A stretch of DNA of 57,613 bases, counting the filler, from Asterionella formosa (taxonomy: Eukaryota), in the NCBI GenBank assembly GCA_002256025.1. It is 4 parts of 4 records of this genome, joined end to end, with 100 filler letters (N's around TTAATTAATTAA, not from the genome) between each part and the next. Parts side by side here need not be neighbours in the genome. Positions count along the whole stretch, not along the records: positions 28,881 to 43,200 come from NKIB01006051.1; 3 more parts are not named here. The stretch is one strand, 5' to 3'. A program made the translations under genes and the position numbers. Numbering within the stretch: position 1 is the first letter of the stretch; each line of letters opens with the position of its first letter. The notes under the pieces were generated by a model, which did no database searches, was not told the origin of the DNA, and was given only the letters and a program-made list of their open reading frames with translations. Shown piece by piece: positions 7,049 to 57,613 of the stretch.

Positions 7049-7346
7049 TGATAAACATGTTCTTTGAAAACCGAGTAATTTGTGCTGAACTGAGAAATTT
7101 TTTCTTCGAAACATAAAAAAGGCAAGGGATTGCTGTGCATAGTCCGAGTGCGATCACTGCGAGCGAAGACATGGGAGTACAAAATACCATGAGCGACACA
7201 GGTAAATGGAAGAATTGTGTCGCCTGCTAGAGCAGGAGCTGACAATTTGAACTGAGTGATCCAACGCTAACGTGAATAAATTTCAAAATGCATTGTTGAT
7301 ATTATTATCCATGTAAAAGCTAATTTGTACTAGCAAAACCAAGTGT

Positions 7347-8351: not shown

Positions 8352-10521
8352 GGTACTAACGTTCCTTTCTTCCTTAGCGGGTTAGCAAGGGTTATTAATG
8401 AATGATGTTTAGCGGTACTTTCGTTGTTCAAGAATTTGTTCTTTGGAGACCTTCGTGCTTTGACATTTAGGTATGTTGTACATAGTAAAAGTTGACTGAC
8501 AACGCGATATATACAACTCATACGTCGTGGTATTGACGATGGGCTGGAGGTACGTGGTGACGATCATGAGGATGACGGGCGAACAATACGAAGGCTGAGT
8601 CAGTGAAAACCCGGAAAATCTGGAAGTTATTTGGGGGTGGGGTTGTCCTGATGGATTATTGTACCTACCGGTATTTTCACTGAGATGTGAAGATTTTGAC
8701 TAAACAAATATTGACATCAGATCCTAAGACACGAAGTCCATCCAGATTCATCCGAAACAAACAACTGAAACTACTTCGAAGTCATAAAGGATTACATGAA
8801 AAGTACCTGCACAACCACATTGGAATGTACTTCTAGTTGCTCTACTAGTACTAGCTAGCTAGTGAGCTAAATGGTAATGTACAGTTGTGAAACTGCTTCA
8901 ATCAAGTCCATCATCCTCTGTTGCCTATTACTACAACTAAAGATGAAGATGACACTACTGATGAGCTCTTTATAGACGCACAATTCAGAACAACGATGAT
9001 ACAAACACTCATTTCGGCAGTTACTATGTTCCCTTTTTAAATGCAGTTACTGTGGATGAATGGGATATCAAGTTGACAACGCAAACAGCGAACTCACCTG
9101 AAATGAACATAAATGATCTTAGCTTCTTTCAGGCGCTTCAAAGTGCACAGTGGGATTCAGTGGAGGAGGCTAATCATGATATGGACGGGCTGGCTGGTTG
9201 AGTCAGTTACAGCAGCATGTGAGTCATTTGAACCGATGAAATTGAATTTTTCATTTCTTACTTTATAGGGAGTTCTTGATGAGGTGATTTAGAGGCAGGA
9301 TGACAACAATTATGACATTCTGCATATTGGGAAAGCAGCACTAGCTAGAATACAAGGAATACTAACAGAGCAACTAGAAGCACATGAGGAGGCAATTGAA
9401 TTGACAAGGATTTTCTTAGACGAGGACTTAGATGAAGAAAAAATATGGAGTAGGGGATGGTGGAAATGTTGGTTGGAATATTGATTCGTGGGACAGGAGT
9501 TTTCGTTTCTGGCACTGTATGACTGCATTAGATTCCAAAAATTCCTCTGTCCTCCTTTTTGTACCATTAATTATATAGTGCACATCCAATATCCATATAT
9601 CTACTTTGTATTTCAACATAAGCTAATTTATAATAAAATGAAATAAGCTTGTTATGATTTAAAATTTATGATCTATAGTATCCATACATACAGCCACATA
9701 AATTCAATGATTTGCTACTGTATTAGTTATATTTCAACTAGATTAACTATCAACTACCGGTAGTTCAGCTTCAACCTTGACTTCATGTAGACAAAAGTAG
9801 CCACTCTATATCCTCGAATATTTGTGTGTGGCTTTGCCAAATCAGAAGGATTTTGTAGTACTAGCTCCAAAACCATAGTAATCAAGAAGCCCACATGGTT
9901 GAGAGTCCTACCCGAATTCACAGAAATGTACCTGGAATGGTATCCCACAACACACTATGTTTATGGAGCTTTTGCGCTCTCTCCATCTTGACTTGAATAG
10001 CATATTCATCTTCACCAATGATCTCATAATCAATATATGCTAACACAAAACAGGACCTTACTGCCAACAGTTACTGCACTTCCACATGGGTAGCACCAGT
10101 GGAACTTGCGTGTTCTGCCTTTGTTGCATGCACCTTGCCCAAGAATCTCTCCATCCGGTTCCCTTCCGACAAACCACATCATCGACAACTTTCGTGGTGC
10201 CTGGCAGATTGTTGCCTCTAGTCATATCGTTTTTATAGATTCCAGGAGTCAGTCAACTCTCATTTGTACATGTATTTACAGTATTCGCTTATACTATAAA
10301 TTGTATTTTTATATATTCATGTGGTTTCGAGTAATTTATGATTCAACATGTTAGTGTTTATACGGGTATTCATGTAAGCTAATTTTAATACCCTATGTCT
10401 CCTAAACCAACAATAGCGACAATGATACAGGGATTCTATTCGAGAATCGAGCGATGTGATGTTCATGCTGTGCCACAAAAAGTCAGTTTCTTGGGATTAA
10501 CTCTTCTTCGATCCGCACATC

Positions 10522-12567
10522 ATGTCATCTGCTGGTCAGAGCTCTCATCGCGGCAGAAGCAAACCTTTGCACAGTAGCAATGGCCATAATTCAACAACAC
10601 ATCACGGACACAATGTATCAGTTACAACCACAATAATATTTTGCATCCTTTCCTTTTTCACTGGGTCTCTCGTTTCTATGCACATGGCGGTTTCCAATTT
10701 AGCGTCCAGTGACAACGATAACATCAACCCCACAGAAGAATACAAACAGCGTCAACGTCAACAGCAACGTGACGAACAAGACAGCCGAAACTATGACGTT
10801 GAGCCAGAACAATACGAACCTCCATCCTCCTATCGAGCTCGTTTCCCACTAAGCATGTCCCAATATCTAAATGGAATGGCACGGATTACAAAGCAATCTT
10901 TCATGGACGCCTTTGATTTGGGGGTTCCTTGGGATCCACCCAAGGACGGACAAGAAGATGTGTTATTACTGTACAATAGACAACGATCACTTCCTAGTAA
11001 CAAGGACAGAGCTGCTATTGAAGGTGAAGGGCCAATACCACTCCTTTCCAATGTTTCAGATGCCATGATCAATTGCGATTTTCTAAATATTGTATTAAAT
11101 GACAATGGTGGAAGGAAACAATGTGTTGCTATTGTTCCGCAATACGAGTCATTTCACATACAGAAATGGATGAGAGTTGGTCCCAAAGGGGCCATGGATT
11201 CCACCAAGGAGCTGAGAATGGTATCACGTGGATATCAAGCCAATGGACGGGAACAATTCAGACCACCAGAAACTAAACTAAACATACACGGAAACTATGG
11301 ACCATGTTGGGGCCGTATTTACAGCACATTGATGAGGTAATGGATAAACTGAGACCCTTGGCAGATGGATGTGCCAAGTCAGGAAGGAAGGATCAACCAC
11401 CAACAGTTATTGTGATGGTATGCAATATGGGACAGAGTATGTTGTTGATGAATTTCGCATGTGCTGCTATGGCACGAGGATTAGATTTGAAGCAAGTATT
11501 AGTATTTGCCACAGATTCAGAAACAAAGGAATTGGCAGAAGCATTGGGATTGACAGCCTTTTATGATGAAATTGTACGTTTATTTTTGGTTTGTTTGTTT
11601 ATTTATTTCTTGTTCTTAGAAATTGGTTTTGGGAAACTTCATTACAGTTTGTTCTGAAAGTTATGTAATAGCTGATGATCAATTTAATTTCTCCCCATGG
11701 CTCACCTTTGGACCTTTCTGGATTCTCTCACTGGCTCAGAACTTTGCAGCCATCCCATCCCAAGCTGCAAAAAGATATGGTGATCGTCAGTTTGTTGCCA
11801 TGATGTTGGCAAAAGTCATTTGTGTGCAATTGATATCCATGATGGGGTACAATTTATTGTTTCAAGATGTAGACATGGTTTGGTACAAACATCCACTCAA
11901 GTTCTTTGAAAATCCTGAAGCTGGAGACTTTGACGTTTACTTCCAAGATGATGGGGCGCATACACAACGGTATGCACCCTATTCAGCCAACAGTGGTTTT
12001 TATTATGTAAGGCACAATGCACGGTCTCAATTCTTTTTGACGGCATTGTTGCATGCTGGTGATGTGATCATTCGAACCGATTCACATCAACAGGCACTCA
12101 TTGCACTTTTGGCAGAACATGCGTCCCTATATGGACTCAAAGTCAAGGTTTTGTCCAGAGACATGGATGAATTCCCAGGAGGATACCATTTCCACCAAAA
12201 GAGTGGCAAGTATATGCATGCCTTTTTTAATGGCAACATTCAACCCTATCTATTCCATATGAGTTGGACACTCAACAAGGACAACAAGATATTATTTTTG
12301 AAGCAAATGGGTGATTGGTGGGTTGCTGACTTTTGTGTGGGGAAGACAAAAAATCGGATTACAAGTGAGCCAACTGTGAACACGTTGTGCTGTTTAGCAG
12401 AGCCAGCGATTTCCTGTCATTTTCGAGACAAGCCTTCAAAAATTCCTTGTAATGATTCACCATCCATTGACAAAAACAAGCCTTCATGGTGGACCAAGTT
12501 TGACAGCGATAACCATGGGACCCTGGATAAATTGATTGCTTCAATATCACATGGTGAGCCCAATTAA
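10522..12567 (+). pseudogene. Second GT77-like glycosyltransferase paralog with one frameshift (or an assembly error); intron 11574-11739
   Basis: Colinear with 5121-7048 (DVLLLY, QYESFHIQKWMR, VLVFATD, LFQDVDMVW, FHMSWT) and shares the intron position FYDEI|NFA. Frame broken by a duplicated AAACT at 11270-11279. Confidence 0.8.
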
Positions 12568-15045: not shown

Positions 15046-16325
15046 ATGAGCAATGACACTGACTCATCTGATGATGATTGCCACTACCATTTCCGCAAGA
15101 TGCATTGTCAACAAAGAAGAGAGAATGATGAAAAGAAAATACAAAATAGGGGAGGAGGTTCCAAGGTTGGCAAGGCCACTAACATGAATCGCTTTCGCGC
15201 AGAGTACGATAAGCTGTTGAAGGACGACTATTTAGGCGAGAATCCAATCTACTCTCATGCACATTTCAGGAGGCGCTTCCGGATGCGTCGCTCCTTATTT
15301 GAAAAGATTCTTGAAGGTTTGGTTGAGGCGAATCCATACTTTGAGCGAACAGAAGAAAGATGCCTTGGGTCTGGTCGGTTTTTCGCCGCATCAAAAGTTA
15401 ACCTCAGCACTTCGAATGTTGGCTTATGGAACTTTGGCGGATCAGCTGGATGACCTCACAAGAATGGCTGAATCGACTCCACTCCACAACCTAAAAGTGT
15501 TTTGTAACTCAATAATCAGCAGGTATGGACAAAAATATTTGAGAGCTCCTACAAAGGATGACATGGAAATGGTTTTACGTCTACATGAAGCAAAGTGTTG
15601 GCCGGGACTTCTTGGTTCATTGGATGTGATGCAGTGGCTGGGAATGGAAGAATTGTCCCAAGGCACACAGAGGAGCTTTTCAAGGAAAAGATGGAGTGGC
15701 TACTGTTGCTTTGGAAGTTGCAGTTGATTGTAGACTTTGGTTCTGGCATGCATGGTTTGGAATGCCAGGTGCTAACAACGATCTCAATATTTTGGATCGT
15801 TCTTCGTTTTTCCGGGACAGCTGGAAGGACTCCTGCCGTCAACTTCACAATCAACAACAAAGAACACAATCTAGGTCACTATTTGGTTGATGGTATCTAT
15901 CCAGACTGGCACATTTTGTCAAAACAACTTCGGAACCACAAGTTGCAAAGCGTGCACATTTTTCAATGGTTCAAGAGGCCCAACGCAAGGACGTAATGCG
16001 AGCATTTGGTGTGCTACAAGCAAGGTGGAGTATCCTGGCGCTTCCGTGCAAACTTTGGTCAGTGGGTGCAATGAATCATGTCATCATTGCATGTATCATA
16101 CTACACAACATGATTATAGAAGATGAGTGGGATACAAAAGACACAAACAAATATTTATTTGATAATATTCAGGATGGCTTTTTGGTTGACAATGTGAATC
16201 ACAACAATGTGCATACCTTTCTAGATTTCAAAGCAATTCGAATGAACTACATCAATAAAAGTGAGCACTATCAATTGCGAAATGATTTGATTGATCATCT
16301 GTGGACTCGAAATGAGGATAAATAA
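15046..16325 (+). pseudogene. Harbinger transposase (Plant_tran-like), frameshifted
   Basis: FRRRFRMRRSLF, QKLTSALRMLAYG, GLLGSLD, WFWHAWFGMPGANNDLNIL, YLVDGIYP, RKDVMRAFGVLQARW, CIILHNMIIEDE and LRNDLIDHLW across at least four frameshifts. Confidence 0.9.
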
Positions 16326-21447: not shown

Positions 21448-21480
21448 AACTTCAAACCAACCTGATACATCAATACAATA

Positions 21481-21791
21481 AAAGTATAGTATGTTTTATA
21501 GCCTATTAGTACTCCCCTATTTCTAGGCAATTCTTTAGTTGTGCTACCTGCCACCAATCACTTTTGCATCGCGAAAGGTGATCGTCTTAGCCGCAGCGTT
21601 AGCAGGGGAAACTCCGACCGCCTAGGAAGGCAGCACAGACTGCTTGTATGGGGGCAACCCATTGTTTCTTGCACACCAGGCAAGACGATACGGGACAGTA
21701 AGGACTGTGGGTGTCGAAACCAACAATTGCGGGAATCGAACCTGAAAACCTCAGATCAAAGGCAACTTACTAAACCACTAAGCCATTCCCT
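21481..21791 (-). mobile_element. tRNA-derived SINE-like element (body type B) with 18-bp TSD
   Basis: Minus-strand head GGGAATGGCTTAGTGG (A box) ... GGTTCGATTCC (B box). Flanking direct repeat TGATACA(T/A)CAATACAATA at 21463-21480 and 21792-21809. Confidence 0.8.
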
Positions 21792-22148
21792 TGATACAAC
21801 AATACAATACATCGTGGTTTGGTGATTAAATACTTATGTAGTTCGCATTGTGCACTCTAGCATTCCAAAGACCGAATTCTCTGGGAGCATCAACACATCA
21901 CAAAAGGTAGGTTTCATTTTCCTTCATCCGACTTCAACAGATAAATTACAGCATCATCATTGTGTGTTTTTTAAAGAACAAATGCATATTATATTGACAG
22001 AGTATTTATAGAAACAGAATATTGATTTAAGAGAGTCATCGTCAAAATTCATGTTGCATACATGGGCATTCATACACTGGGTGTGGTATCCGATGCAGGG
22101 CACATGCATTAGTATGTGGTAAGTGCATGAGGGATTGCGGAGGTGAGA

Positions 22149-28780: not shown

Positions 28781-28880
28781 NNNNNNNNNNNNNNNNNNNN
28801 NNNNNNNNNNNNNNNNNNNNNNNNTTAATTAATTAANNNNNNNNNNNNNNNNNNNNNNNNNNNNNNNNNNNNNNNNNNNN
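28781..28880. other. Artificial contig linker
   Basis: N run with TTAATTAATTAA at 28825-28836. Confidence 0.95.
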
Positions 28881-29895
28881 AGCGTGTTGCGCGCCAGGCC
28901 GAACCTTCCTACTACCAAACTCTTGTAGCTTTCAGGTAGGTTGTTGATCATGTGTGCCACATAGGCACCATCCAAAACGGCGGAGCTTGTATTGCCCAAT
29001 CGTTCCAAGATACGATCCAACTCCACATACCAGCTGTCGGGGTTCTCGTTTTCCCCTAGAGTGCACTTCGTCCATTGGTGGGACAAGGCAATGACATTTG
29101 CCATGTTGCCTGACTCATACGTAGAAATGAGCTTGTCCCATGCTTCTTTAGCATTGCCGTTAGGAAACTCGGCACTTCTTGCATTATTTACATGTCCGAA
29201 TGGCCCGCTCTGGCATGCCATTATCAGACTTGCGTAAGCAACTGTGTTGCTCCTTCGGATGCGTCTCTCGTCAGCATCCGACAACACGATTGTATCACCC
29301 TTTAGGTCTTTCTCTCCTCTTGGTAGTTCGTCATTGTTAAGTATTCCTTGAAAGTTGCTTCTTGTAGCACGCGTATGCGAGAAACTTCGCTTTCCACATG
29401 TGCCATTTAGCATCTTGCCCATTGAATGTTGGCAACCTCATTGACGTGTCTTCGTCACTTCCCATCATTCCTGAGTAGCCTGTGCCCTTCAAAGCTACCG
29501 CTTTAAAGCGTGTTAAAGGTCTTGTACTCCTTCCCATCTGACGGGTTCCTCTTACGTAGGTCTTAACTGTTGTACCACTAGTATTGTTATCTTCTTTCTG
29601 CTGATAGCCTTCGTGCTAGTTCTCGCTATTGACCTTCTCACTCTGTCAATCCTCATCCTCTTTTTTTAAATTATAAGCTTAAACTAAAACTAAGTTTCAA
29701 TCCCATTCATTACACTTCGAGAACCTGTTCTTCGTGTTCCCTTTTCGTTGATGTAAACCTTCTTCTGATTGATCTAAGACATCAATCTCGTTAGCAAGCT
29801 TCTTGACATGGGAACGCATCGTTTGACTCATTGGACTATAGTCGAGTCCACAGTCCCTGTGACTCATTATAGCCATTGATGCTATATTCTTGACA
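28881..29895 (-). mobile_element. Copia 5' end: LTR (29511-29895) plus gag, cut by the contig end
   Basis: 385-bp LTR with TGTCA...TAACA termini on the minus strand. gag MMGSDEDTSMRLPTFNGQDAKWHMWKAKFLAYA...AKEAWDKL...ENPDSW...LPESY with one frameshift. Confidence 0.88.
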
Positions 29896-30043
29896 TACTT
29901 TGTACTTTCATCAAGTTTAGATTGTTGTCTTACATAACTATTTTTAGTTGGAAGGTAGAGTAAAATAACGGTGGCTTACAGTTTTTAAGTTGTACCCGGT
30001 AGCAGAACCATTATTGGTTGATCATCTATGACGAGCGAACAGA

Positions 30044-30582
30044 ATGTTTTCATTCCTGTTTTGCCTCCATAGTACTGCAAACAACTTGGCAACACCGACG
30101 TTGTCAACCCACCAAGAAAAGGTTTCTGTTTGGGACAACGTTCTGACTGAGCCAGCTCGAAATGCGCTTCATGGGGTGGCCAAGGCATCTGGACTCGGAC
30201 ATCACGTCTTTCAACGGTCAATTGGAGCTTCCAACTTGATAGAACAAACGCTGGACGTGATTCTCACGGAAATTGGGGATCCGACAAGGCAATTTGTCGA
30301 GTATTGGTCCAGACAGGAATGGCGACATATAGGAGCACATGCCGATGTAGACGAGAATTTGGCCAAAGAGCAAGATCGAGCAAATGGAGGACTAGCAACG
30401 GAAGCCTTCCGCTATCCTGACAAGGGGCATGTTCTTTACCTATAGATTGGAACTGATGTTCGGGGTCCCACCTGGCTGTGTATTTACTAATCAAACAACT
30501 GGTGGTGAACTCTCGAGGGGAGATGTGGAACTGGTGACTGTTCCCGCGGTTGGAGGGAGACTGTTAAGATTTGAAGGGAATT
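30044..30582 (+). pseudogene. Truncated 2OG-Fe(II) oxygenase-like host gene fragment
   Basis: VEYWSRQEWRHIGAHADVDE (HxD), HVLYL, in-frame TAG at 30443-30445, GPT and VPAVGGRLLRFEG, then an abrupt junction to Copia gag before the expected distal His. Confidence 0.65.
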
Positions 30583-31331
30583 TCCCATGCTTCTTTAGCA
30601 TTGCGTTAGGAAACTCGGCACTTCTTGCATTATTTATGTGTCCGAATGGACCACTCTGTCATGCCATTATCAAACTTGCGTAAGCAACTGTGTTTCTCCT
30701 TCCGATGTGTCTCTTGTCAGCATCCGACAACACAATCATATCACCCTTTAGGTCTTTCTCTCCTCTTGGTTGTTCGGCACCGTTAAGTATTCCTTGAAAG
30801 TTCTTGTAGTACGCGTATGCGAGAAACTTCGCTTTCCACATGTGCCATTTAGCATCTGGCCCATCAAACGTCGGCAACCTCATTGACGTGTCTTTGTCAC
30901 TTCCCATCATTCCTGAGTAGCCTGTGGCCTTTAAAGCTACGCTTTAAAGCATGTTAAAAGGTATCGTACTCCTTCCCTTCTGACGGGTTACCTCTTATGT
31001 AGGACTTACCTGTTGTATCACTAGTATTGTTATCTTCTTTCTGCTGCTAGCCTTCGTGCTAGTTTTCGCTATTGACCTTACTCTGTCAATTCTCACTGTT
31101 TCTTAATTATAAACTTTAACTAAAACTAAGTTTCAATCCCATTCATCACACTTCGAGAACCTGTTCTTCGTGTTCCCTTTTCGTTGATGTAAACCTTCTT
31201 CTGATTGATCTAAGACATCAATCTCGTTAGCAAGCTTCTTGACATGGGAACGCACCATTTGACTCATTGGACTAAAGTCGAGTCCACAGTCCTTGTGACT
31301 CATTATAGCCATCAATGCTATATTCTTGACA
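30583..31331 (-). mobile_element. Second truncated copy of the same Copia: LTR (30952-31331) plus 5' gag
   Basis: Highly similar to ~29137-29895; gag MMGSDKDTSMRLPTFDGPDAKWHMWKAKFLAYAY; ends at the oxygenase junction. Confidence 0.88.
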
Positions 31332-31974
31332 TCCTTGACCTCCGGTAGATACCTGGTAGGAGTACGAGGTACCTGGTACCTGGTACATAGTCATATCGTC
31401 ATATCTATTGAATATCTGTTACAGCAATTCCCGCTCCAACTATCGTCTTGCCATTTGGGTACTTCTAAGTAATTTTTAGGCTCTAAGTAATTTTTATTTA
31501 AGGGCAATATGGGGCACATCGAATTTTTCGGCAATAAAATCGCCGATTTTAGCATGACAACCAGAATAACGGTAGTAATATGCATAGTGAAGGTACAACA
31601 AGCGTAAAACACACGAGAATGATTGTAACATGCAACATCAATGAAAATTGAACATGATGTTTGGAGCAACCAAAGTATGAAATGCGATGTAATAAGTAGC
31701 ATCAAATGAGAAATAGAAGAAAGAAAATTTGGGTTAGAAATGAAATAAAAAATAAGAGTTCCAATGGAGACATATGCATTGTGAATCATTGTAGTACTTA
31801 CACAGGCAACATTGACTTTCCATCACCATACAATCGAAGACCGAAAGAAGAAGAAAAAAAGCTCAACCCAATGTAGACCTGCATCGTTATTTAGCATCAA
31901 TGGTCTGGTTGCTGCAACCATAGAGCGGGAATTACTCGCAGGCAAGTAGCCGCCGAGAAGGGTATTGTTGAGGA

Positions 31975-34900
31975 GATTTGCTGCTGCGGTCACAGCTTCC
32001 CCCTCCATGTCTGTTGGCAGCTTGTTTAACATCCGTTCAATAAAATCCTTCATTGACACCATGACTTTTCCTGGTGTAGTAAAATCAAGAATCATGCCTA
32101 GGTATTCATGATCTTTTCCACGGGTCTTTGTAAGGGGTGCCTCAATGCCAAATTCCGCCTCCAACTGCTTGATTACCTTCTTGGTAACCACATTTGGCTT
32201 GACATGAGATATCTTTAGATCATCCACATGCCATAATATTGTGCGTTGGGCCCATCAAATGTTTTGTTCATTACACACCAATCGTATGAATTCACCTCAA
32301 ATCCCCATTGTTTCAACTTTGTTGTAAGTTTCTTCCAAAAGAACAGCGCTGCCTTGAGAGTTCTGTACAATGCTTTCTTTAGTTCCACATATAAGACCTG
32401 CTTACCCCCTTGCATCTGCACTTGTTTGCGGTATAGTTTGGGTTCTATTTGCACAAGGAGTTTGGCCATTTTGCCTTCCAACTTCATGTGAACAACATCC
32501 TCCATATCCGCCTGCATGAATGCCCATGGTATGTCAATTGTGGCAACATCACGACCTTCCATTGCATCGATTACACAAGATAGCAGTCCTGATTCGATAC
32601 CGGTAGCCACAGTTGGTGAACTTGCCTCTTCCTGGTTTGTATATGCTCTCTGCTTTCGGCCGTTGGCACATCCCTGTCCCTTTATGACACCATTCCGTTT
32701 TTGTTTTAGGAACATTAAATATTGCAGAGCGCCTTGTCTTTCCTCACTTGTCATCTCTTTGGCGTTTACTGGCTCTAGGACCTTTCTGTCATGGAGCTGT
32801 TGTAGTTCCTTTAGTACTGCATCAATTACTGCATCACCGAGGAACTTAATCCCTTTTTTCATATTATGCTTTGTCATCACTGTATTTTCAAGAGTTGTAT
32901 GCATGTGACTATAGTCCCGAGGTTGTCTGGGTTGTAGTTCATATCCACTGCTTCGGGTCCCATATTTTGCATCCATTTCCTCGTCTAGCGACATGTTTTG
33001 TTGCTCCTCTTCATTGGCCACATCATTAATATTATCTTCAACATTTTCGCCCTCGATTTCGTTGTTATTCTCAATTGCGTTTTCTAGATTTTCCTTCTCA
33101 ATTTCGGCATTATCGTCAATTTCGTATCGTATATTTTCCTCCTCGATTTCGGCATTATCGTCAATTTCGTATCCTGTGAGGTGTTCTTCATCATACACTC
33201 CTGCGATGGGAGCATCAGGGATGTTCTCCGCATTGGAAGTTAGATAATAGTCATCATTGTATTTATTTATACTGGAATTGGCATCCTCATCAGGGTAATA
33301 GGACTCGTCATCACTATCATCATCATCAGGGTTGGTGAGAGAAGCACCATCACGATCAGTGAACATCAGCTCATGGGTGCCATTGCCGGTATTGCGACGA
33401 GCTAGGACATGCACTCGATCAATTACTTCTGCCGGCATAGGCAATGCGGTCCAATGATTCCGATTTAGAACTCGACCACTAGTGAGGCTGTAAAAATAGT
33501 AACCGCCTTGCTCGTTTCCTGTTGGTTGTAGTGCAATTGCCCCTGTAGTTCTGGTGGCCATGGAGTTGTCATGCTTTTCATGCACTTGCACATATGTACC
33601 GAACTCAAGTTTGCAGTGCTTATTGTAATCGATTAGTGTTCCAATCACAATGGCACAAGGGCTTAGTTTAGGAGATAATTAGGAGATATTCCATCTTCTG
33701 CTGGGAAAGCAACTGTTAAGCCAGAACACACTGTAATAGACCCAATTTCAGTTATCATCCTTGCTGGAATTCGCCGAAACGGCAATGTGTTAAATACACA
33801 ACGTGCGCGCTCTTTGATGGTACAAATGTATCTTTCCACTTCTGGAACATGTTCATAATTGGAAACAGTATTGAGATTGATTTATATTTCTGCCAGGTCA
33901 CCTCTGAGTGATTCAAATTGTCCATCCAGCATTAACAATGTTGAGATCTTAAATCCCCTCTTCATATAGAGGCTTTTCACTTGCTAACTTGCCCTTAGTA
34001 TTGTCTTGCTTTGTTGATTTTGCAGCATTTCTGCTGTCCCAAATTTGACATGATGGGACATGGTCACAAAGAAAGATATTTTTTTCACAAACATGATGTC
34101 ACCTCCCAAGATGATATTTTTATAGTGATTCATTATGCTGGCTGGGATGTAATTGAATTGATTTGGTTTTCCCTTTTACTAGTGATCCCACATCAGGACC
34201 AAATATATCCTCTGCCATCATGATGTCCCTTTGCGTCACTGGGCAGTTTGGTAGTAAATTGTTTTCCACAATTTTAGTGAATGTACGAGTACTTGGCCTT
34301 CCTATGATCTTTTGTAATTGACGAGCTAATACTGCACAAGAGTAGTCACGGTTGGTGTAGTTAGAACGGTTATTGTATACTGTATTAACCAGTGTGACCT
34401 CTTTAGTGCTGGTCATCTTGCTGTCCATGAAGTATAGACCACGATCTGATTGTTTAAACACTCTCATGGTTCCGTCTGGTTTATAAATGATGAACTAATT
34501 TCCATCCTTGCTATCATATTTAATGTGGTACCCACGTTCCTGCATTTTTGCCAAGGACAAGATGTTGGCAATCCCATTTGGATGGTACCACACTGTCCCA
34601 TATCCTGGCAAGTCACCAACAAAGTTAGTGCTTGTAACACCTGCATTGCAGTGAATATCCATGTGTTTTTCACCTTTTCTGATATTCCTGAGTAGATTTG
34701 CATTATAGAAGACATCAACAGTAGACTGATTGTCTAACAAGATCCAGCTCTTTGTGATTTTTCCGCTCTCATCTAGCTTCAATGATACTTCCTTGGTGTG
34801 CTGTAGGAATTGGAAGTGCTCCTCATGTTTAAACTCTCCATTATACCTGCCGTCAAAAGCATGGAGCCAGTTTGATGCTCCTGACGCGGCTCCTGACGCT

Positions 34901-38088: not shown

Positions 38089-39461
38089 TTCATTTCGAAA
38101 AGGATAAAAATAAATAAAACTTTTATTACGCTTTGATCATGGATTCGGGAAAGTGTGAAGTTTTGTTCCCTTTCTTGCGTGAAATGGTGAGATACGAGAT
38201 ACAAGGCTCTGTTGCATGATTTAAATAAACACAACTCTCGCACGTTCAGTTTAGCGATTAACTCTCAAGTGACGTGCTGTTGTCAACTTACTACACAACG
38301 ACAAGAAAATTCATGTTCAAGGTATCTCCCGTTCCAAGACAAGTCAAATTCCCTCCATGCCCACTCAATGCCTCTATGGCATGGATACGTCAACATTCAC
38401 CGACTTGATAGCTCATAATGTCTCAAAGTGATGATGAACGAACAATCTTCTTCGTCTAATAAGTCCTCCACTGTCGGTGGGACATGTTCGGCAACTGTAT
38501 GTATTGGTTCCAGAATACAGCCAATCGTTTCCGGGGGTAACGGTGCCTAACTGACGAGGCCCGTGGAGCGTATCGTCCACGCCCTCACCGTATTCGCCTC
38601 CTGCAATAACGAGGGATCTTGCATTGATGAACACATTGTTAAGGACCGAGGTGGGAGCAACATTAGAAAATACAACAATTGTGCCAACGGTGGGGAAATC
38701 AAAGTAGATGATCCCGTCCTGGCCCAAGCGGAGCTTATTTATGCTCTTCTGGTCGGTGAATACAGGCATATCAAGGTGAAGCGTATCATCGTGAAAGAAG
38801 GCAGCTGCCCATTTGGTACACGCTGCATGTTCAACTAACTTGATACCTAGTACCTGGTACCAGGGGTACCTTGAATATCCTCTTCTGAGCAGTCCGGCAG
38901 GGGAGGGATCGAGTCGTGACCCAACTATCATGTCTTAGCCCCGTCTTACGGTGCCCGAATTACGAAGATTGAGTCGCCCGGATACCTGTCCCCCGCCCCC
39001 GATTACGAAGATTAATCTTCGTTCGCCCGAATATTTCGAGGGTCATCCCCGATATTGACCCAATCTTCGTATTTTCTTGAACAATCTTCGTTTCCCGAAG
39101 ATTGATCTTCGGGCAAACGAAGATTGTCTCCACCAATCAGAATGGCGGAAACAATATATAATCGTCATCAGTTCAGTTCTACTGGACAAAGTACTAGGAT
39201 TCTGTGTACCTTTACCGGACAATTGTCCGGTATTTGAGAAAATGACCGAACTGTTGTTCATCAAGACGAACACGGTGAAGCTAGTGATTTTCGGTTGAAG
39301 TTTAGTGAAGACCAATTTTGAGCAGGAACTTCGCAACCTTTTGCATGGTTTTTATCAGATTATTGCAGTAGAGAATCATTATGGTTAGGAGAGATTTGTG
39401 AGGGTAAGGACCCCATGAACAATCAACATATCACCTCCTTTGTACTTAGTTCATTGAGTTA

Positions 39462-39694
39462 AATGTTAATTAAATTTTTGTAGTATGTTAAAGCTATCCA
39501 ATAATTGCAGTTGTGCCTGCTTAAATGGTAACAATTAGTACCAGTTTTATTCATCCGTATGGTACAACAGTACCTGTCTCTTCGTCAGCCTCACCCCCAG
39601 AACCCTAGGGACTACATAAAAGAAAAACAGGTGGAGAATGCAGGAATCAAACCCGCTACCTTATGAGGTGTGCTAACCAATTAAGCCATTCCCC
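39462..39694 (-). mobile_element. tRNA-derived SINE-like element (body type A) with 19-bp TSD
   Basis: Minus-strand head GGGGAATGGCTTAATTGGTTAGCAC...GGTTTGATTCC; homologous along its length to 54375-54604. Direct repeat TACTT(A/G)GTTCATTGAGTTA at 39443-39461 and 39695-39713. Confidence 0.85.
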
Positions 39695-39715
39695 TACTTG
39701 GTTCATTGAGTTAGG

Positions 39716-40330
39716 AACTGGTGATGGCATTTGGGGTAACCTATTCCTGGCCTTTACTTGGAATTTGATTTGCAGGGTCAATAGCACAAGCCAAATCTGC
39801 TTGTCACATATGGAGTGGACTGATGATGCTCTGCGTAAATAATTTGCAAAAACTAAGACAGATCAGAAAGGGACTCAATCAAAATATTCCAGACATATTT
39901 ATGCAAATCCAATTGAGTGGGTAGTATATCCTATATTTTATCTTGGTGTATAGTAGGGAAGATTTAATAATGTTGCTAAAGGAAATAGTTGCTTATTCCC
40001 TGGTCACAATCAATTTAAGAGATTTTCATCTATTTTAAAGCAGAAGCCAAGAAAGCACAGCTATTTGAATAAGGTACTATTGAATCAAACAACATCAGCA
40101 TGCACAGTATAAGGAAGGGGGCTGCTACTTACATTAGTGCCTGCCCAGGGGGAACTTCATCAGGTTCTATCAGTGTAAATGGTGGGTGGTCAATAGGCAG
40201 AGTCAAGGACATTGATGTCCAGTGGTATGAGCATTTGTGGGGAGTCCTTATGTGGTCTACCCATGTTACTTGCATGATTCTCTTCCTGTCCCCCTATGTT
40301 TTTAAAATCTGAAACTTATGGTAATAAAAC
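39716..40330 (+). mobile_element. Crypton-like tyrosine recombinase relic
   Basis: WNLICRVNS, FAKTKTDQKG, RHIYANP, LFPG, HSIRKGAAT and GGWSIGRVKD correspond to the R..K..HxxR..W catalytic motifs; many stops. Confidence 0.75.
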
Positions 40331-40686
40331 CAAAGCTGCAGTGTTTCCAATGATGCTCCTAGTATGTATGTACCAGTTGATGTACTACCCAGTATATCAG
40401 CATGTGGATGCAGGAGGTACCTGGTACCTCCTGGGAATGTATTTGCACAGGGCGGTATTTGTTGTAGTCACGTGATCATTTTCGTATTCTATCGCCTATT
40501 ACATGCTAGAGTGATAGTAACAGCCAAAGTAAAAAGTTGGTAGATGCTACGTATCTGTAGCTCTCACGCAGTAAAAGTTGCTAGAAAAATGTTTCTACAA
40601 TTTGTTTGTTTTACTTTGTTTGCTAATAATTTTTTATATAAAAAAAATGTGAGCTTAATCATGTAAATGTAAATTTGAATGTATAA

Positions 40687-43200
40687 TGTTGAAACTTCCA
40701 AGCTCATGCATGTTTCAAAATAGAGGTGATCTTCGGAGGCGAGGTTCGTTTGTGTTCCCAACTTGAACTGACAATTCACTACATCCTCTTCCTAAATACA
40801 CATTTGTCTTAATCTTGGCCTGTCTCAACTTAGGCCAGATGCTGTTTGATCGAAGACCGCTTACAGAATGATCATGTTATTCATAACCAGATCATATCTA
40901 GTTTGCTTCTTTAATGTTCCTTGATTTTGCGGAAATATCTGTAATTGTCTAGTCAATCATTTATTGATTTGGCCTCTAGGTCTGATCGTCTTCTAGAGTC
41001 CATTTAAAAGGTTAGAGAGAACTTCTCCTGAAAGTTCCTCTCTCAACTGTGGCATTTTACACCCGATATTTAACCATGTGTTCTTGAATCAATCATTTAG
41101 TGGCTTGTGGTACATGTTCCTAATCAGGTCACTAGAGACGAAAATATATTGACACTCTCGTAACCTGATCTGGAATCAGGAATCTCTATGTGTTTCAACT
41201 GTCCCTCTCAGCAAAAGCATGTTGCTACCATCCACATAGTAACTTGCGTATTGCTGTAAATTTCTCTGCTACTAAACCCTTTGTGAAAATTTCCCCAAGT
41301 TGTTTTGTAGTTTCAATCTTTAAGATTTCAATATCACCTGATGACACGTACTCTCTAAACCAATGACATGCCACTGCAATATGTTTTGTTCATGGCGTCA
41401 TTTTTGCCATTGTCGCTTGAGACAAACATGCACTATTGTCTTTGTATATCTTTGAATGTGACCGTACTATGAACCGCTCAGTAATCTTTAGAGCTTCAGA
41501 CGCCTCCTTACAAATTTGTCTATGGAATTAGGTCCCGACAACTTGCTGACAAGGCCTGGTACTCAGCTTCCATAGTAGATAGGGCTATAGTGGTCTGTAG
41601 TTTGGATACCCATAGTAGAGGACATCCAGCTAACATTATGACGTACCCTGTCCTTGACTTAGCACAAACAGGATCATGTGAATCTTCACTACCATATAAT
41701 CCTGCAAAGTCTGAATCCACATAGCAATCAATTGCGAATTCCTTGGATGGTGTAAATACGATCCCTTCGGTTGCTGTTCCTTTTAGATACCGACAAATTT
41801 TCTTAATTGCCCCTTCATGTGATACTTTAGGACAATGTGAAAATCGCGCACACTGGTGAACTGCAAATGCTATGTCTGGTCGAGAATTAGAAGCCAAGTA
41901 CAATAACATGCCTACTATTGACCTGTAGTTCCATTGTTCTTCTGCAGGCCAGGTTCACCATTGACATCAGCACCTAAAGTTTCCTTAATTGCTGGAGTTG
42001 TTGTATGCCTGCAGTCTTGCATCTTGGTAGCCTCTAGTACTCTCTTTATTAATCCTTCCTGAGTTAGTTTCAGAGAACCATTTACATTTTTATCAATTTG
42101 AATACCTAGAAAGGCTGAAAGGTTGTCTTCTCTTGTTTACTCTAATGTAGTACCAAGATCGTCAATCACTGACTCAATCTTAGCACCATATTTCCAAATC
42201 AGTATACCATCATCTACATAGTTCAGGTACACCATATCTTTGTGTATAAAGAAACATGGATCCAGCTTAGACTGCTGAAACCCGCGTTCCTCTAGGCTTT
42301 CCTTAAGTTTAAGGAACCATGCCCGTGGAGCTTGTTTTGTACCAATTAAGCGATTTATTTAGCTTTAGGAGCATGTCGCGCCCGTGCTTGTCACCAAAAT
42401 CTTTTGGTAACTCCACGTACACTTCTTCTTCAATCTCTGGTTGACAAAATGCATTACTATAGTCGATTTGTCGTGTCTCAAGTCCTAACACAATTGACAT
42501 TACCAGTAAGCATCGCACCGTGGACCATTGTACTACTGGTGCATATGTCTCGAAATAATCAACACCTTCTACTTGTTTGTCACCACGGACACAGAAGCGT
42601 GCTTTGCATTTTCGAAGACAACCATCAGGAAACCTCTTCCTCTTGAACGCCCATGTTCCCGGTAGGACATTTTTGTTCGGAATGGATGCTCGTGGCATAA
42701 TAGTCCATGTATCTTTTGCCATTAGAGCATTTATTTCTACTACCATCGCTTCCTTAAATGATTCAGAATCGATGCTTGCCATTGCCTCATGATAACGAGG
42801 AGAATCTGGGTCAGAAAATAGGGTCGGTACATTCCATATATCCGGTCACAGGATCGGTCATTAGTGACGACAAGTAAGACAGGACCTACTTCGATTGGCT
42901 CAAACAATAATCCTGTTCACTTAGACTAGATAGAAAAGTATGTGCAAGATATCCATCTTGTCAACTTAGACCAGGAATGAACCGTTGCGGTGCTCTGTTA
43001 GTTCTGGTACTACGTCGCTGTGGAAGAGACATTTCTGGTTGTTGAGGTTGCTCAATTTGTTCTTGTCCCACTCCTGCTGTTTCTTGTGGAATCATTCCTA
43101 CAGCATCTTGTACCATATTCCTAGTGGGAGGTAGCCTATGCAGCCACTTACTTGTATCCACCGCATCCATCCGTGCTGGTACACTCTGCAATACTTCGGG
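40687..43200 (-). mobile_element. Copia 3' half: RT, RNase H, PPT and 3' LTR (~40687-41200)
   Basis: KARFCVRGDKQVEGVDYFETYAPVV, YVDD, RPDIAFAVHQCARF, YVDSDFAG, SRTGY..ALSTMEAEY and KHIA. PPT GAGAGGGAC precedes an LTR with GTTGAAAC...GTTTCAACA inverted ends. Confidence 0.9.
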
Positions 43201-49615: not shown

Positions 49616-50069
49616 GGTAATAGTATTAGTAGTGATCATAGGAAGATGCCAAAATTTTTGGTCCTTATCAAACTGTTGAGCCTCAACACTAATGACAGTT
49701 GTTTCCCCGAGCCAGGGAGCTCCTGCTTGACTGATATGAGAAACGGAAAGAATAGAACCAGCACGTGACAGCTTACGATTGAAACCTTATAGAATATCAG
49801 GATATCGTCGTAGATATTTGGCAAATTATAAGAGACCTGCAAAATGGAGCATCCCAGGAGCATTTTGATATTGCGCAAGGCGTTGTACCGCAGTTTGAAT
49901 GTCCAGACGCGTCCATTGACACAGATGTTGGAATTCACCAAGGAGAGTGCGATACTCAAAACCATATGACTTAATAGCGAGTTTCATTTCCACGTCTGAG
50001 TAGGGGACACAAGTTGCTAAAGCTTCTTCATGTTGAATGCCGGCGATAACTCTGAGAACCAACAAAAAT

Positions 50070-51040
50070 TGATCAAAGAAGAAGGCATCAGGATGTTTAA
50101 ATTTTATAAATTCTCAGTGCTGTAGAAACAAAAATTCAAAACCATGATCTTTCTCCACCAATTTGAGGCTGATTTTTTTTCAGCATAGTTTTCGATGTAC
50201 ACGAGATCAATGTCGTCATGGCCAATGTAGATATTCTCAGAACAAACATATATTGATCAAAGGAGGCATCAGGATGTGTAAATTTTGTAAATTATTGGTG
50301 CTTATGGACTGATCATCAGTGCTGTAAAAAAATTCAAAACCACGATCTTCCTCCACCAATTTAAGGCCGACTTCTAGTATTCGTTGTACACAAGATCAAT
50401 CCTGTCAAAGCGAATGTCAACATGCTCATAACAAACATATATTGATCAAAATAGGTATCAGGATGTGTAAATTTTGTAAATTCTCGGTGCTTGTGCTGGA
50501 CTGATCATCAATGCTGTGGCAAAAAAGTTCAAGACCATCTTTCTCCACCAATTTAAGGCTGATTTCTATTCAGCATAGTATTCGATGCACACGATATCAA
50601 TGCAGACATGTCCAATGTCGATATTCTCTGAACGAATATGTATTCATCAAAAGGGGGCATCAGGATGTGTAAATGTTCAGTGCTTGTGGACTGATATCAG
50701 TACTGTGGCAACAAAAATTCAAAGATATCTTCCTCCACTAATTTAAAGCCGATTCTATCCAGCATAGTATTAGATGTACAAGAGATCAATGCCGTCATGG
50801 CGAATGTCGATATTCTCAGAACGAACATATATTGTACAAAGGAGGGATCAGGATTTGAAAATTTTCGGTGCTTATGGACTGATCATCAATGCTGTAGAAA
50901 CAAAAATTCAAAACCATGATCTTTCTCCACCAATTTAAGGCCGATTTCTATCCAGCATAATATTCGATGTACACAAGATCAATCCTGTCAAATGCTCATA
51001 ACGAACATAGTATATTGATCAACGGAAGCATCAGGATGTG
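50070..51040. repeat. Tandem array A, ~180-200-bp unit, about 5 copies plus a partial
   Basis: ATCAGGAT anchor recurs near 50088, 50268, 50457, 50659, 50847 and 51030, with shared CTCCACCAATTTAAGG and GATCAAT blocks. Confidence 0.9.
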
Positions 51041-51469
51041 GAAATGGCGATTGTGGCACTTCTCATTTTCGATTTACTTCCATAGGATGTGCTAGTATGC
51101 CGTGATGATAGTTATTACATCAGCAGGGATGCACCAAAACTCAAAGCTATTATTCTCTATCAAATTGCATCCATCTACTAAATTGCTAAGAGTTTTATTG
51201 GTCAAATCAGTCATCATTTTGTTGTACAAAACATCATTTCGATTTGGTTACAACGGAATTTTTTGGGTCAAATCAGACATCTGTAAATATTTTGGAGTGT
51301 ATGGACTGGTGGTGTGCAGAAAAAGTGCGAAATATTGCAAAGAATAGAGGTTATGGAGTGATTGAATTCAATGAAGTCGATAGTCCTCATCTCCTTGGCC
51401 CTTGCCTTTACAACCAATTTTTTATTGCTACATCTATCATTATAGATGCTGTAATCTAGTCGATCGTAA

Positions 51470-52450
51470 AAGGAGAATGCCATTGTGGCACATCTCAATT
51501 TCGACTCACTATGGCAACATACAATGAATGATAAAATATGCAACACCTGTTTCTTAATGAATTTATGAATTCAATTGTTGTCAGCTAATCATCCTTTGAT
51601 TCTTTTCCTTTATTGACCTTGCAAGAGTTTTTGCTGTAGTCTATTTGTTGCCACTCCGAAAAGGAGACGGCCATTGCGGCTCATCTCAATTTTCTAGTGG
51701 TCACTATGGCGACATGCATTGAATGTTAAAATATGCAGCAGCTGTTTCTAAAAGAACAATTTACGAATTCAATCATTGACAACCAATCATCCTTTGGTTC
51801 TTTTTATACATTGTACTTGCTAGAGTTATCGCTGTAGACAATTCGTAGCCGCTCCAAAACAGAGAAGGCCGCCATTGCGGCACATATCAAATTTGACTCA
51901 CTATGGCGACATACAAGGCTAAAATATGCAACAGCTGTTTCTTGACGATTATACGAATTCAATCGTTGACAGCTGATCATCCTTTGCTTCTTTTTATATA
52001 TTGTACTTGCTAGAGTTATCGCTGTAGGCTATTTGTAGCCACTCCGAAAAGGAGACGGCCATTGCGGCACATCTAAATTTCGACTCACTACGGCAACATG
52101 CATTGAATGTTAAAATATGCAACATGATAGCTTTAACGTACTATAAGATTTGATTGATATTTTCGTTATTGCTGTAGACTAGTTGTAGCTGCTCCGAAAC
52201 GGAGAAGGCCATTGCGGTACAACGTCTCAACTTTGACTCACTAGTAGTACTATGGCGACATGCAGGGTTAAAATATGCAACAGCTGTTTCTTAACGAATT
52301 TACGAATTCAATCGTTGTCAGCTCCTCATCCTTTGCTTCTTTTCCTATATTGTACTTGCTAGAGTTATTGCTGTAGTCTTTTGTATCTGCTCCGAAGAGG
52401 AGAAGGCCATTGTGGCACATCTCTTTTCGACTCACTACGGAGACATGCAA
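51470..52450. repeat. Tandem array B, ~190-bp unit, about 5 copies plus a partial
   Basis: CATTG(C/T)GG anchor recurs near 51481, 51672, 51873, 52060, 52210 and 52408, with shared AAAATATGCA, GAATTCAAT and GTACTTGCTAGAGTTAT blocks. Confidence 0.9.
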
Positions 52451-53680
52451 TGCTCAATGATGCTTAACGAGGACCAACGGAGCTTTATTTCTAATCTGGT
52501 AGGCTATTACTGTAAACTCTACAATCAACAATGACTAAACAATATGTCTACAACAGAAACTAATACTACGTGTGCTGAATTCTACTGTGTAAATCTTCCT
52601 CTTGCATGTTTTATTATTTGCCAGTTGAGATCAAAGAAATATGTGGCTTCATAACCAAGTCGTTTGAGAGCATGGACACTAAGAGACCGACATCGGTAAT
52701 GCAACAGTGTTTTGCAACAAAATTTCAATTTCAACAGTCCGGTCCACAGAAATGAAGCATGGCAATAAGGTTCCAATATACCCAACTTGATCTATATCTC
52801 CAATTTTGGCTGTTTGGAAGACCACATTGGAACTGACCACATTGTGCAGCTCATTGCTCTTACAAGTTACATTGCCATTCGCCCCAGTATCCACATGTAT
52901 GAGAGATTCACCATCTCGTAAGAGGGCGGTATTTTCAAGGGAAGCTGTGATCAAGGTGGATGGAGAATGAGGTAGTGACAAAGGGGGGTGCAAGATGATC
53001 TCAGTGGAGTCATTAGATGAATGGGTAAGATCAAAAAATTTCATGTCATGCACATCTCTGATATGATTTACAAAAGCCACCATTCGATTTTATTGTCCAT
53101 GATTATCGCAGCTATAAAGATGAGGACCAGTGTCCAAAGGGAGTTGTGTATGGTCCTCCTGTGCAGCAGTCAAGTGAACTTCTTCAAGAAGGGATTCAAG
53201 AGGGGAAGAAATGATTTCATTGACATCCAGTGAATGGTTGTAGATAGCATGAACACTGAGTGGGTGAGGGGAAGGATTGGTGTATGGCTGATGAGTGCGG
53301 GGGAGGGGAAATATGTGTAGGACCATAAAAAGATGGTAGTATTCTGGACTGCCTGCTTTGCTTCTTTTGCTTTGATTAACAATTCTTTCCTGTTGTCATA
53401 TAGTCCATTGAGATGAAGCAGTGGTAGAAGGAGAGGTAGCTTGAATGTAGGAGTGATGATGGGAGCAGCAACGACAAATAAAATACATAGGGTCAGGTTT
53501 TGCTAATTCTAGGCCTACGGGGTCTACCTCATGTCCCCTCATTCAAGCAAATATTGGTGGTAATATTAAATTTGCTCAATAACCGGTATTGCATAGAATT
53601 TACTACTGGTATTTAATTGTTGCTTTAATTCCGACAAATGAAGACGAAATTGTTTCAGCCTAAAAATTACGAGGCTTTAT

Positions 53681-53830: not shown

Positions 53831-54374
53831 CTGTAAGTTGGCTCGGTTTAGCAGTTATTATCTTTTCGTAATGGAGGTTATAATTTGAATTTGCTTAAGA
53901 AAAAACCATTGGCTAGCTAGAAAGTCAGTTGACTCCATCGGTCCATTATGGCTTCGATGCCCTGCAGGCGGGCTGAAACCAAAAAAGCGCACAGAAGGCG
54001 CAATTACCGCATCTTCCAGATACTCGTACACAGGTTTACTTGTAACGATCGATGCAACAAAAAATACTCAAGAATCAGAAGGATTGGCGACGAAAACAAA
54101 AACTAAAACAAAACCAAAACGCCGATCTTGATATGTTGCGAATGAAAGGAAGGCAAACTTAGAATGCCAAATAATACTCTTTTACTCAATACAATTGTCT
54201 ACTGCTGCTGTGTACTACTAGTGTAGTAGTTTATATCTATACATGATGGACATACTAGTGATTTATAAAAATTTGCGGGAAAGCAAGATAAATTTTCACT
54301 TTCCTATAAATAGTAAGAGGCAAGTGCATGATTCCATGTATATTGCATGGCACTCTTATAAACATCTTACCTAG

Positions 54375-54604
54375 GGGAATGGCTTAGTGGTTAGCACACT
54401 CACTGTGGTGGCGGGTTCGATTCCTGCATTCTCCACCTGTCTTTTTCATGTAGTCCCTAGGGTTCCGGGGGGTGCGACTGACGAAAATACAGGAGGTCCC
54501 ATTGTACAACCGTACGGACAAATTGTGTCCATTTATTTGGTGGGCCCGACTGCAATTATTGAATAGCTTTAATATACTAAAAAATTTAATTGAAATTTTT
54601 TATT
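54375..54604 (+). mobile_element. tRNA-derived SINE-like element (body type A) with ~14-bp TSD
   Basis: A box TGGCTTAGTGG and B box GGTTCGATTCC; body homologous to 39462-39694; flanks AACATCT(T/A)ACCTAG at 54361-54374 and 54605-54618. Confidence 0.82.
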
Positions 54605-55448
54605 AACATCTAACCTAGTATGAGGCAAGAATTTAACAGTTCCTGGCACCAGAACAAGCCGATCACCTATTTTGTCACTTCCATCAGGTCCTCTTTGAGG
54701 TGAGGTATGATAAAAGAGTCCTCTTCGAGGTATGATCAAAGAAGTAGAAATGTGAATAAATGAAGGCAGTCCCCAACATTGAACTAGGAGGAGTGAATGG
54801 AGCTGGATGGCTGAAAGGCAGAAAGGTCCGGAAAAACACGTTTCAAGCTAAATTTCTCGATTAAGTGAGCTTCTACAGGTACCGGTACATATTTTTTATT
54901 CATACGACCGCTCTATACCGGTACTCTCTTCATAGATACCTTGTACCATGCTTTGACTCTTTTGTTGAACCATGGGACATGAATGATACGAACGCAGAAT
55001 TTGTATTTTTATCAAATACCGGTAATTACCGGTATTTATCTCTCCATGCTGGTGTAGCTGATACTAAATGGCAAATGACGCACGTACAAATGATCTCCGG
55101 CCTCCTGAAATCAAAATGCGATCCTTCTCATTTTGTTCCATCACAGACGTACGTAGTGTGTCACCCTCATAAATATGAATTTCTTCTGAATATATCTATC
55201 ATGTCTTGTTCGGAGACGAAGTTTGTAGGCACAAAACGCTGGTTCCACAGTCCCTGGTAGCACTTCATAAAAATGATTTGAACGAGTCACAGAATAAAGC
55301 AGAGCACAACAGAAAGAATACTTTCATTGTAGCAGATTCCAATTTCACATCCTTTCATATATTTCTTTCCCAATCAACAACAACAACAACAACTCTAAGT
55401 AAAAGTTTGTTCATGCACACACACACACACACTCCAATAATCAGCACA

Positions 55449-56372: not shown

Positions 56373-56520
56373 AGGGGTTGCTCAGTTGGTTAGCACGCCT
56401 TCATAGGTGGTGGGTTTGATTTCTGCATTCTCCACCTGTCTTTCTTTTTAATGTAGTTCCTAGGGTTTCAGGGGTGGGGCTACTAAATTAATGAGACAGA
56501 TTCCCATTGTACCATACAGA
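56373..56520 (+). mobile_element. Third, more diverged copy of the type A SINE head and 5' body; 3' extent uncertain (possibly to ~56885)
   Basis: GGGGTTGCTCAGTTGGTTAGCAC..GGTTTGATTTCTGCATTCTCCACCTGTC..ATGTAGTTCCTAGGGTT..CCCATTGTACCATAC matches the other two copies; no convincing TSD. Confidence 0.75.
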
Positions 56521-57613
56521 TGTTAGGATGATCCTGAATTGGTAATCATCAAGTACATACGTACATGAACATCAAGGCAGACTGTGCCAGGAACAAGCGC
56601 TGAACCTTCTAGCAAAAGAGTAGCCTTGGTTAAAACGCTTAAGGTTGCGGCCCTGGCTTAACCTTAGTTTGGAGAAGATGTTGCTAGGGTTGGAAAAAGT
56701 GCATGGAACAAGGAGTTTGCTTCCCATGATTTGAGTGTCCATTTGAATATTTGAATTAAATAGGAATCGGCGCCAAATTAATAAAGTTCTATTTTAAACA
56801 AACATGATATTTAAACATCTTTATTATATCTATGTTGCTGAATGTAGACATAATTTTGTTCAATGCCAAAAAACATACTAGTATATAAATCAGAAGTATT
56901 CCAACATGTATACTAATGGTTCGTGTTTATACGTTTATATTTAATCTACATTGCTGTATGTATTTCTCTTTCTCCATACCCAAAGGCATACCATACACAA
57001 AAATCAGTACTACTGGAGTACCAGGCATACGAATAGCACATAATCTTGGTTCATGATGGTGGAAAGGATGAAACTAGAAGTGATTTTACCTACCGGTATA
57101 CAGTACACCTAATACATGTGGTTCAAGTTTGGCTGGCGTGATTTTACAAGTCCGAAATACTTCAGACAGGAAGAGAGGAAAATAAAGTGGTTCTCGCGGA
57201 AAATGTTCTGGTTGACATGTATCAGTATGGTCATTGCGAGAAAGGAAATGGTCAGCATGAGTTTGTGTACTTGACAATGGAAGGAGGAGGAGTCAGCCAA
57301 GCCTGAGTTTCCAACTGGAAAGAATGCATCTTTGTGGGTGGATACATATGTTGCAAAGCGATTGAGTGGTGGGAGGAAGGATGACAATATAGTCATTGAT
57401 GAAATTTTCACAAAAGTGATGACACATTCTTCTGCCAATAAAATAAATACGACTTTGGTGAAAAGCCAAGGAAAAGTGACAATATAGCAGATGAATCTCG
57501 CTGTTCCATCTCACTTTATGATAGCAATCAACAGCATGTTTCTGGATTTGTTGATTGGTGGACCGCTGGCGATGCCTGTCTTCTTTTTGCACCAAGTGGC
57601 AAATCCAGCAATA

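Follow-up and report, generated by a model that had tools for sequence, protein, structure and literature searches.

The window, that is, the whole 57,613-nucleotide stretch of DNA that was analysed, contains three copies of a short repeated unit which is very probably an old, high-copy, tRNA-derived short interspersed element (SINE), mobilised through target-primed reverse transcription by a non-LTR retrotransposon enzyme. The unit has a clear anatomy, occurs many times between dispersed and mutually unrelated flanks, begins at a sharp 5' edge, is bounded by target-site duplications of 13-19 nt and has a precise empty site as its counterpart. Retroposition by target-primed reverse transcription was preferred because the tRNA-like head lies at the 5' end, the duplications vary in length, an empty site exists, the flanks are dispersed, and neither inverted nor long terminal repeats are present. 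An earlier note on this DNA had read the unit as a tRNA-derived SINE family, abundant in a diatom and with long, variable duplications, and each of these points was upheld; its derivation of the head from tRNA-Met was not. The features on which the description is based are as follows.

39462-39694, minus strand: full-length SINE copy c39, 233 bp, with head, body, 3' module and short AT-rich end (profile E 3.2e-76).
54375-54599, plus strand: full-length SINE copy c54, 225 bp (profile E 8.5e-62).
56373-56556, plus strand: SINE copy c56, without the 3' module (profile positions 2-176, E 5.4e-42).
39630-39694, minus strand: tRNA-like head of c39, with motifs resembling the A and B boxes and a shortened anticodon arm.
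39695-39713, no strand assigned: target-site duplication of c39, upstream copy, 19 nt, 18/19 identical to 39443-39461.
39443-39461, no strand assigned: target-site duplication of c39, downstream copy, 19 nt, pairing with 39695-39713.
54356-54374, no strand assigned: target-site duplication of c54, upstream copy, 19 nt, 17/19 identical to 54600-54618.
54600-54618, no strand assigned: target-site duplication of c54, downstream copy, 19 nt, pairing with 54356-54374.
52126-52165, plus strand: isolated SINE 3' module of about 40 nt, joined to an unrelated tandem-repeat unit of about 190 bp.

The presence of three copies of a non-coding unit of about 230 bp, as claimed previously, was confirmed by both blastn and profile search. 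In the blastn comparison, c39 (query 39462-39694, minus strand) was aligned with 54374-54597 (plus strand) at 77.2% identity over 241 columns and with 56380-56522 (plus strand) at 79.3% over 145 columns. A profile constructed from seven copies matched the window at 39463-39693, 54375-54597 and 56374-56556, with E values from 3e-76 to 5e-42, and a 24-mer from the B-box region, searched with up to 3 mismatches, gave three matches in the window against none in 100 shuffles. The copies are 225-249 bp in length and no ORF of at least 120 aa overlaps those in the window, which makes the unit short and non-coding. The most diverged copy is c56 (62-69% identity to the others, 68% to c54); it ends approximately 45 nt short of the 3' end, so that the tail is absent, and no recognisable direct repeat was found in its flanks. 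Target-primed reverse transcription does not yield copies cut at the 3' end, and for this reason a later deletion was assumed for c56. The sub-type represented by c54 is closer to the metagenome copy L001, and its head resembles that of the metagenome locus L002. Independent copies are 79-85% identical, and pairwise differences overall amount to roughly 15-38%; given this divergence, the family is old and decayed, and probably no longer active.

Copies outside the window were sought in several collections. A scan of metagenome contigs with a 21-letter B-box pattern returned five loci only (L001-L005), and four metagenome copies were counted beside the three of the window. L004 is complete and independent, with an identity of about 80-82%; L001, also independent, is truncated by the start of its contig. 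L003 represents the insertion of c39 itself (92% identity across 390 nt, of which 146 nt are flank), and L005 is a c39-type fragment that has its flank in common with L003. The flanks of c39, c54, c56, L001 and L004 are mutually unrelated. The remaining locus, L002:756-830, which is labelled marine metagenome, contains the head only, with 94.7% identity to c54 over 75 nt, beyond which the sequence is unrelated; either a truncated copy or a further family built on this head may account for it. A scan of prokaryote genomes with a 19-mer gave 6 loci that matched over only 19-22 nt and were rejected as chance, and a scan of viral contigs gave no matches.

Duplications were present in all three full-length copies for which both flanks were available, with lengths of 19, 19 and 13 nt, and are therefore variable in length. 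The 19-bp direct repeat with one mismatch noted earlier at c39 was verified at 39443-39461 and 39695-39713; its score of 18/19 was reached by none of 5000 shuffles of the downstream flank. In the metagenome copy of the same insertion (L003), the downstream duplication has, at the position where the two repeats of c39 differ, the letter found upstream of c39 in the window. The 19-nt repeat of c54 (17/19) was likewise never equalled in 5000 shuffles of the downstream flank, and the 13-nt repeat of L004 (11/13) was reached by 99 of 5000 shuffles.

Contigs from three DNA sequencing runs (X1, X5 and X11) and one RNA run (X6) were aligned to positions 38760-40400 at a likeness of at least 80%. Eleven X5 contigs leave the alignment at 39696, and their mutual agreement beyond this point is only 0.46, so the unit has a sharp 5' edge followed by unrelated flanks; in every copy seen, this edge is the first base of the tRNA-like head. 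A site without the unit was also present in two of these runs, and it is paralogous; the earlier note had proposed looking for such sites in other strains. In one contig each of X1 and X5, 39426 is followed by 17 other letters and then by 39695, and these contigs occur at single-copy depth (785 against 761 in X1; 38.8 against 34.5 in X5). The 17 junction letters, read by eye, match 39427-39442 at 12 of 16 positions. Both contigs keep a single copy of the 19-nt target, and their net loss is 251 nt; since 252 nt would be expected for the element plus one copy of the duplication, the empty site is precise. The joint in X1 is defined by only 26 letters on its shorter side. The empty site was considered a paralogue and not an allele, because the sequence on either side of c39 is itself repetitive (75-640 times the unique depth in X1, only 3-80 times in X5). 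The insertion target (39315-39461 and 39695-40400) is a repeat in its own right, with approximately 75-195 times the unique depth in X1, falling to about 3-34 times in X5 and X11.

The abundance claimed for the family was borne out in the three DNA runs. At position 39657, where c39 has a private letter, at least 117 (X1), 68 (X5) and 69 (X11) distinct contigs carry the letter of the family. Summed depth in the four bins of the SINE was 175,594-408,778 (X1), 1,876-7,312 (X5) and 507-1,838 (X11), and that of unique neighbouring bins was 761, 34.5 and about 11, respectively. The resulting ratios of 231-537 (X1), 54-212 (X5) and approximately 46-167 (X11) were used as orders of magnitude only, because they are sums over contigs and not copy numbers; the count of distinct contigs is the firmer measure. 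On this basis the family comprises on the order of 10^2 copies or more. Contigs of the RNA run also cover the unit, but since some of them run across its edges into the flanks they were not taken as a sign of a discrete SINE RNA; as assembled RNA contigs they are uninformative on start, end and strand, and may include DNA carry-over.

The tRNA-like part comprises the first 63-65 nt of the unit, at its 5' end. Against the Rfam tRNA model, the head of c39 scored 22.7 bits over model positions 1-71 (cut-off 29), and that of L003 scored 30.0 bits and thus exceeded the cut-off. A search of the window against Rfam as a whole gave no match at the gathering score. A cloverleaf fold was obtained for three of four heads, with the anticodon region reduced to a 4-bp stem and a 4-nt loop (12 nt in total); this arm is about 9 nt shorter than that of the Rfam model and that of a related head at 21.7 kb, and the spacing between A box and B box is about 9 nt below the spacing in tRNA genes. 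The two box motifs were assigned by eye against consensus sequences. The full cloverleaf of a functional tRNA, in which a 5-bp stem carries an anticodon loop of 7 nt, was not present. ARAGORN called no tRNA genes in the SINE heads at either its default or its 90% threshold. With the threshold lowered to 80% and 70%, three of seven heads were called, misregistered, as '???', Cys and Thr, and these three inconsistent identities were rejected as a guide to the source tRNA. In the profile alignment the letters of the mini-loop vary between copies. A tRNA-Met origin, suggested previously by reading CTCATAA as a 7-nt anticodon loop, is unsupported because the arm is short (4 bp and 4 nt), the loop letters vary and the ARAGORN identities are inconsistent. 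The tRNA-like head with polymerase III A and B boxes, which the same note had described, is real, with the qualification that c39 falls below the Rfam cut-off and that ARAGORN returns nothing at its stricter settings.

The head is followed by a pyrimidine-rich linker, in which a run of four to six T residues stands directly after the head in six of seven copies, L004 being the one without a T-run. The body of about 120 nt is unrelated to tRNA. It is succeeded by a conserved 3' module of about 40 nt and then by a few variable A/T bases, often again four to six T residues. The AT-rich tail reported for the two full copies was correct as to composition, and it is not poly(A). The ends of the unit read GGGG... 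and ...ATTTT without a terminal hairpin, and no terminal inverted repeats joining the two ends were found. The 3' module also occurs alone at 52126-52165, where a degenerate tail pattern matched with 0 mismatches (0 matches in 100 shuffles), the identity to the tail of L001 is 97% over 34 nt, and the profile E value is 4.3e-4. This isolated module lies inside tandem arrays with a period of about 190 bp (50051-51046 and 51468-52463), in which it takes the place of approximately 85 nt of one array unit, and it could represent the 3' terminus of a different retroposon family with the same tail.

Mobilisation would start with a master element from which an RNA copy is made, presumably by RNA polymerase III. 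An autonomous non-LTR retrotransposon would then supply the enzyme that reverse-transcribes this copy at a staggered nick in the chromosome. The part recognised by the partner enzyme would be the 3' module in place of a poly(A) tail, as is suggested by the recurrence of the module without the SINE at 52126-52165. The mobilisation by a LINE that had been put forward agrees with the duplications and the empty site, and neither a LINE nor a matching LINE 3' end was found. Among the 40 of 55 window ORFs of at least 120 aa that were scanned, no non-LTR reverse transcriptase or AP-endonuclease domain was detected, the only transposon-type domains being copia-type RVT_2, gag and Harbinger-like. The T-run behind the head and the shortened spacing of the boxes call for caution with regard to transcription from the unit's own promoter; a run of four to six T residues in this position would, in many eukaryotes, end polymerase III transcripts ahead of the body.

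The same two features are accommodated by an alternative in which the unit is a retroposon with a fossil head, its copies arising from polymerase II or read-through RNAs and only its 3' module being of importance for mobilisation. This alternative was judged unlikely. It would fit the T-runs directly after the head in six of seven copies, the shortened distance between A box and B box, the RNA contigs that cross the edges of the element, and the 3' module on an unrelated repeat at 52126-52165; however, read-through predicts ragged 5' ends, whereas the sharp and constant 5' edge fits an internal promoter with transcription starting at +1, and the T-runs, absent from L004, may have arisen later through C-to-T decay of the pyrimidine-rich linker. 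A reading of the units as tRNA genes or plain tRNA pseudogenes, for which the passing Rfam score of L003 (30.0 bits) might be cited, carries practically no weight: ARAGORN found no tRNA even at 90% thresholds, and the reading is refuted because a 160-nt non-tRNA body is repeated together with the head and because the anticodon arm is missing, being down to 12 nt.

The two remaining alternatives concern other classes of mobile element, and both were regarded as highly improbable. Harbinger-like ORFs in the window could be taken to favour a MITE, or else a Helitron-type element, with a chance tRNA-like piece, but there are no terminal inverted repeats, the duplications of 13, 19 and 19 nt do not have one fixed short length, and the GGGG... 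and ...ATTTT ends lack a terminal hairpin. Helitrons create no target duplication at all. This reading is thus largely refuted already. The same-orientation arrangement of c54 and c56, 1.8 kb apart, and the flanking sequence common to c39, L003 and L005 would be expected if the unit were the LTR of a small-RNA-derived, non-autonomous LTR retrotransposon. Against this, c54 has its own 19-nt duplication tight around the 225-bp unit, c54 and c56 are only 68% alike and not a near-identical pair, the flanks of c39, c54, c56, L001 and L004 are unrelated, and duplications of 13-19 nt are unlike those made by an integrase, which are 4-6 nt in length.

Besides the SINE described above, a second SINE-like element of 311 bp is located at 21481-21791 on the minus strand, with an 18-nt duplication (17/18; 21463-21480 and 21792-21809). 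Its head agrees with that of the SINE over the first 18 nt and in the B-box region but is longer by 9 nt where the anticodon arm lies, and its body is unrelated. No Rfam tRNA match to this element was obtained at E <= 10. A common tail, suggested by a similarity of the two 3' ends to the eye, was rejected, as 237-1067 of 2000 shuffles equalled the local alignment scores.

The probable diatom host proposed in the earlier note was supported by the lipid-desaturase ORF at 7347-8381, for which 498 relatives were retrieved at E <= 1e-20. All organism names among the 120 of these relatives that were listed are diatoms, including Seminavis, Stephanodiscus, Stephanocyclus, Ditylum, Skeletonema and a name starting with "Staur". 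A comparison with the Protein Atlas, in which Streptophyta was the commonest group, was uninformative as to taxonomy. The sequencing runs containing the region derive from lake, freshwater or algal samples. Judged from these comparisons, a freshwater diatom is the supported candidate for the host.

SINEs are routine in animals and plants, and to our knowledge non-LTR retroposition in diatoms has been thought marginal. A family of hundreds of copies, with clear anatomy, long duplications and an empty site, attests to a role of non-LTR retroposition in trans in shaping at least one diatom genome. The 3' module offers a handle for finding the responsible LINE, and SINE insertions could serve as markers for strains of a common lake diatom and be of use in the annotation of diatom genomes. 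Mechanistically the family is ordinary, and it does not change what is known of how SINEs work.

The class which the unit most closely recalls is that of tRNA-derived SINEs (SINE2) with a LINE-derived tail other than poly(A), whose 'stringent' partners in animals are elements such as RTE, L2 or CR1; background to the class is given in PMC7245038 and PMC5786205. Like these, the unit has a 5'-terminal tRNA-like head with A and B boxes, an unrelated body and a conserved 3' module, together with duplications of variable length, a high copy number and dispersed sites. Unlike SINE2 elements with stringent partners, it was found here with no partner LINE, and it has a T-run behind the head, a 12-nt anticodon mini hairpin and a diatom host. 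Elements of a candidate partner kind, RTE-like non-LTR retrotransposons, are on record in the marine diatom Thalassiosira pseudonana, as stated in the relevant passage of PMC2806351; none was seen in the window or the fetched loci.

Reports of SINEs in diatoms concern the same host group and class as the unit. Excerpts of the genome reports give 13 'putative SINE' with a total of 1,454 bp in Phaeodactylum tricornutum (PMC5859163) and automatic SINE annotations in Cyclotella cryptica (PMC7466962) and Skeletonema costatum (cited in PMC8147415), and the passage concerned in the last of these, a 2021 paper, places SINEs on record in only two further diatoms. Compared by description only, the passages of PMC5859163, PMC7466962 and PMC8147415 give counts or percentages, with no anatomy, duplications or empty sites. 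The earlier remark that SINEs are little described in diatoms held good in these passages, where they figure almost exclusively as entries in automatic repeat tables (for example in PMC5859163). A search of full-text literature yielded no diatom SINE family described in detail, only genome papers with repeat-class tables, whose supplementary tables may list families. When four fragments of the unit were used as text queries against papers, the only matches were 4 unrelated primers. Tentatively, and with more doubt than confidence, the unit may be proposed as the first diatom SINE family described at the sequence level, with hundreds of copies mobilised through the 3' module, and as one of several modular SINEs relying on one 'stringent' LINE, perhaps RTE-like. 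Such a modular set with one LINE, if true, would be indicated by the occurrence of the 3' module on another repeat (52126-52165) and of a common head in the element at 21481-21791.

Several other repeats and genes were observed in the window. Directly adjoining the host repeat of c39 at 39314/39315 is a very high-copy repeat (38925-39314) that is rich in short CGAAGAT...ATCTTCG palindromes and has a summed depth of 153,000-487,000 in X1, against 761 for unique sequence. At this same boundary, L003 together with four X5 and three X11 contigs continue with a different sequence on which they mutually agree. Copia-type remnants comprise a gag region at 28829-29437 and RVT_2 regions at 32215-33678 and 42309-42845, and a direct repeat of 767 bp is present at 29136-29900 and 30583-31336. 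Harbinger-like transposase ORFs (Plant_tran, DDE_Tnp_4), which are frameshifted, also occur in the window, and the remnant regions as a whole span 28829-33678, 42309-42845 and 15236-16325. Two paralogous ORFs for nucleotide-diphospho-sugar transferases, located 5 kb apart at 6182-7048 and 11620-12567, are approximately 65% identical at the DNA level.
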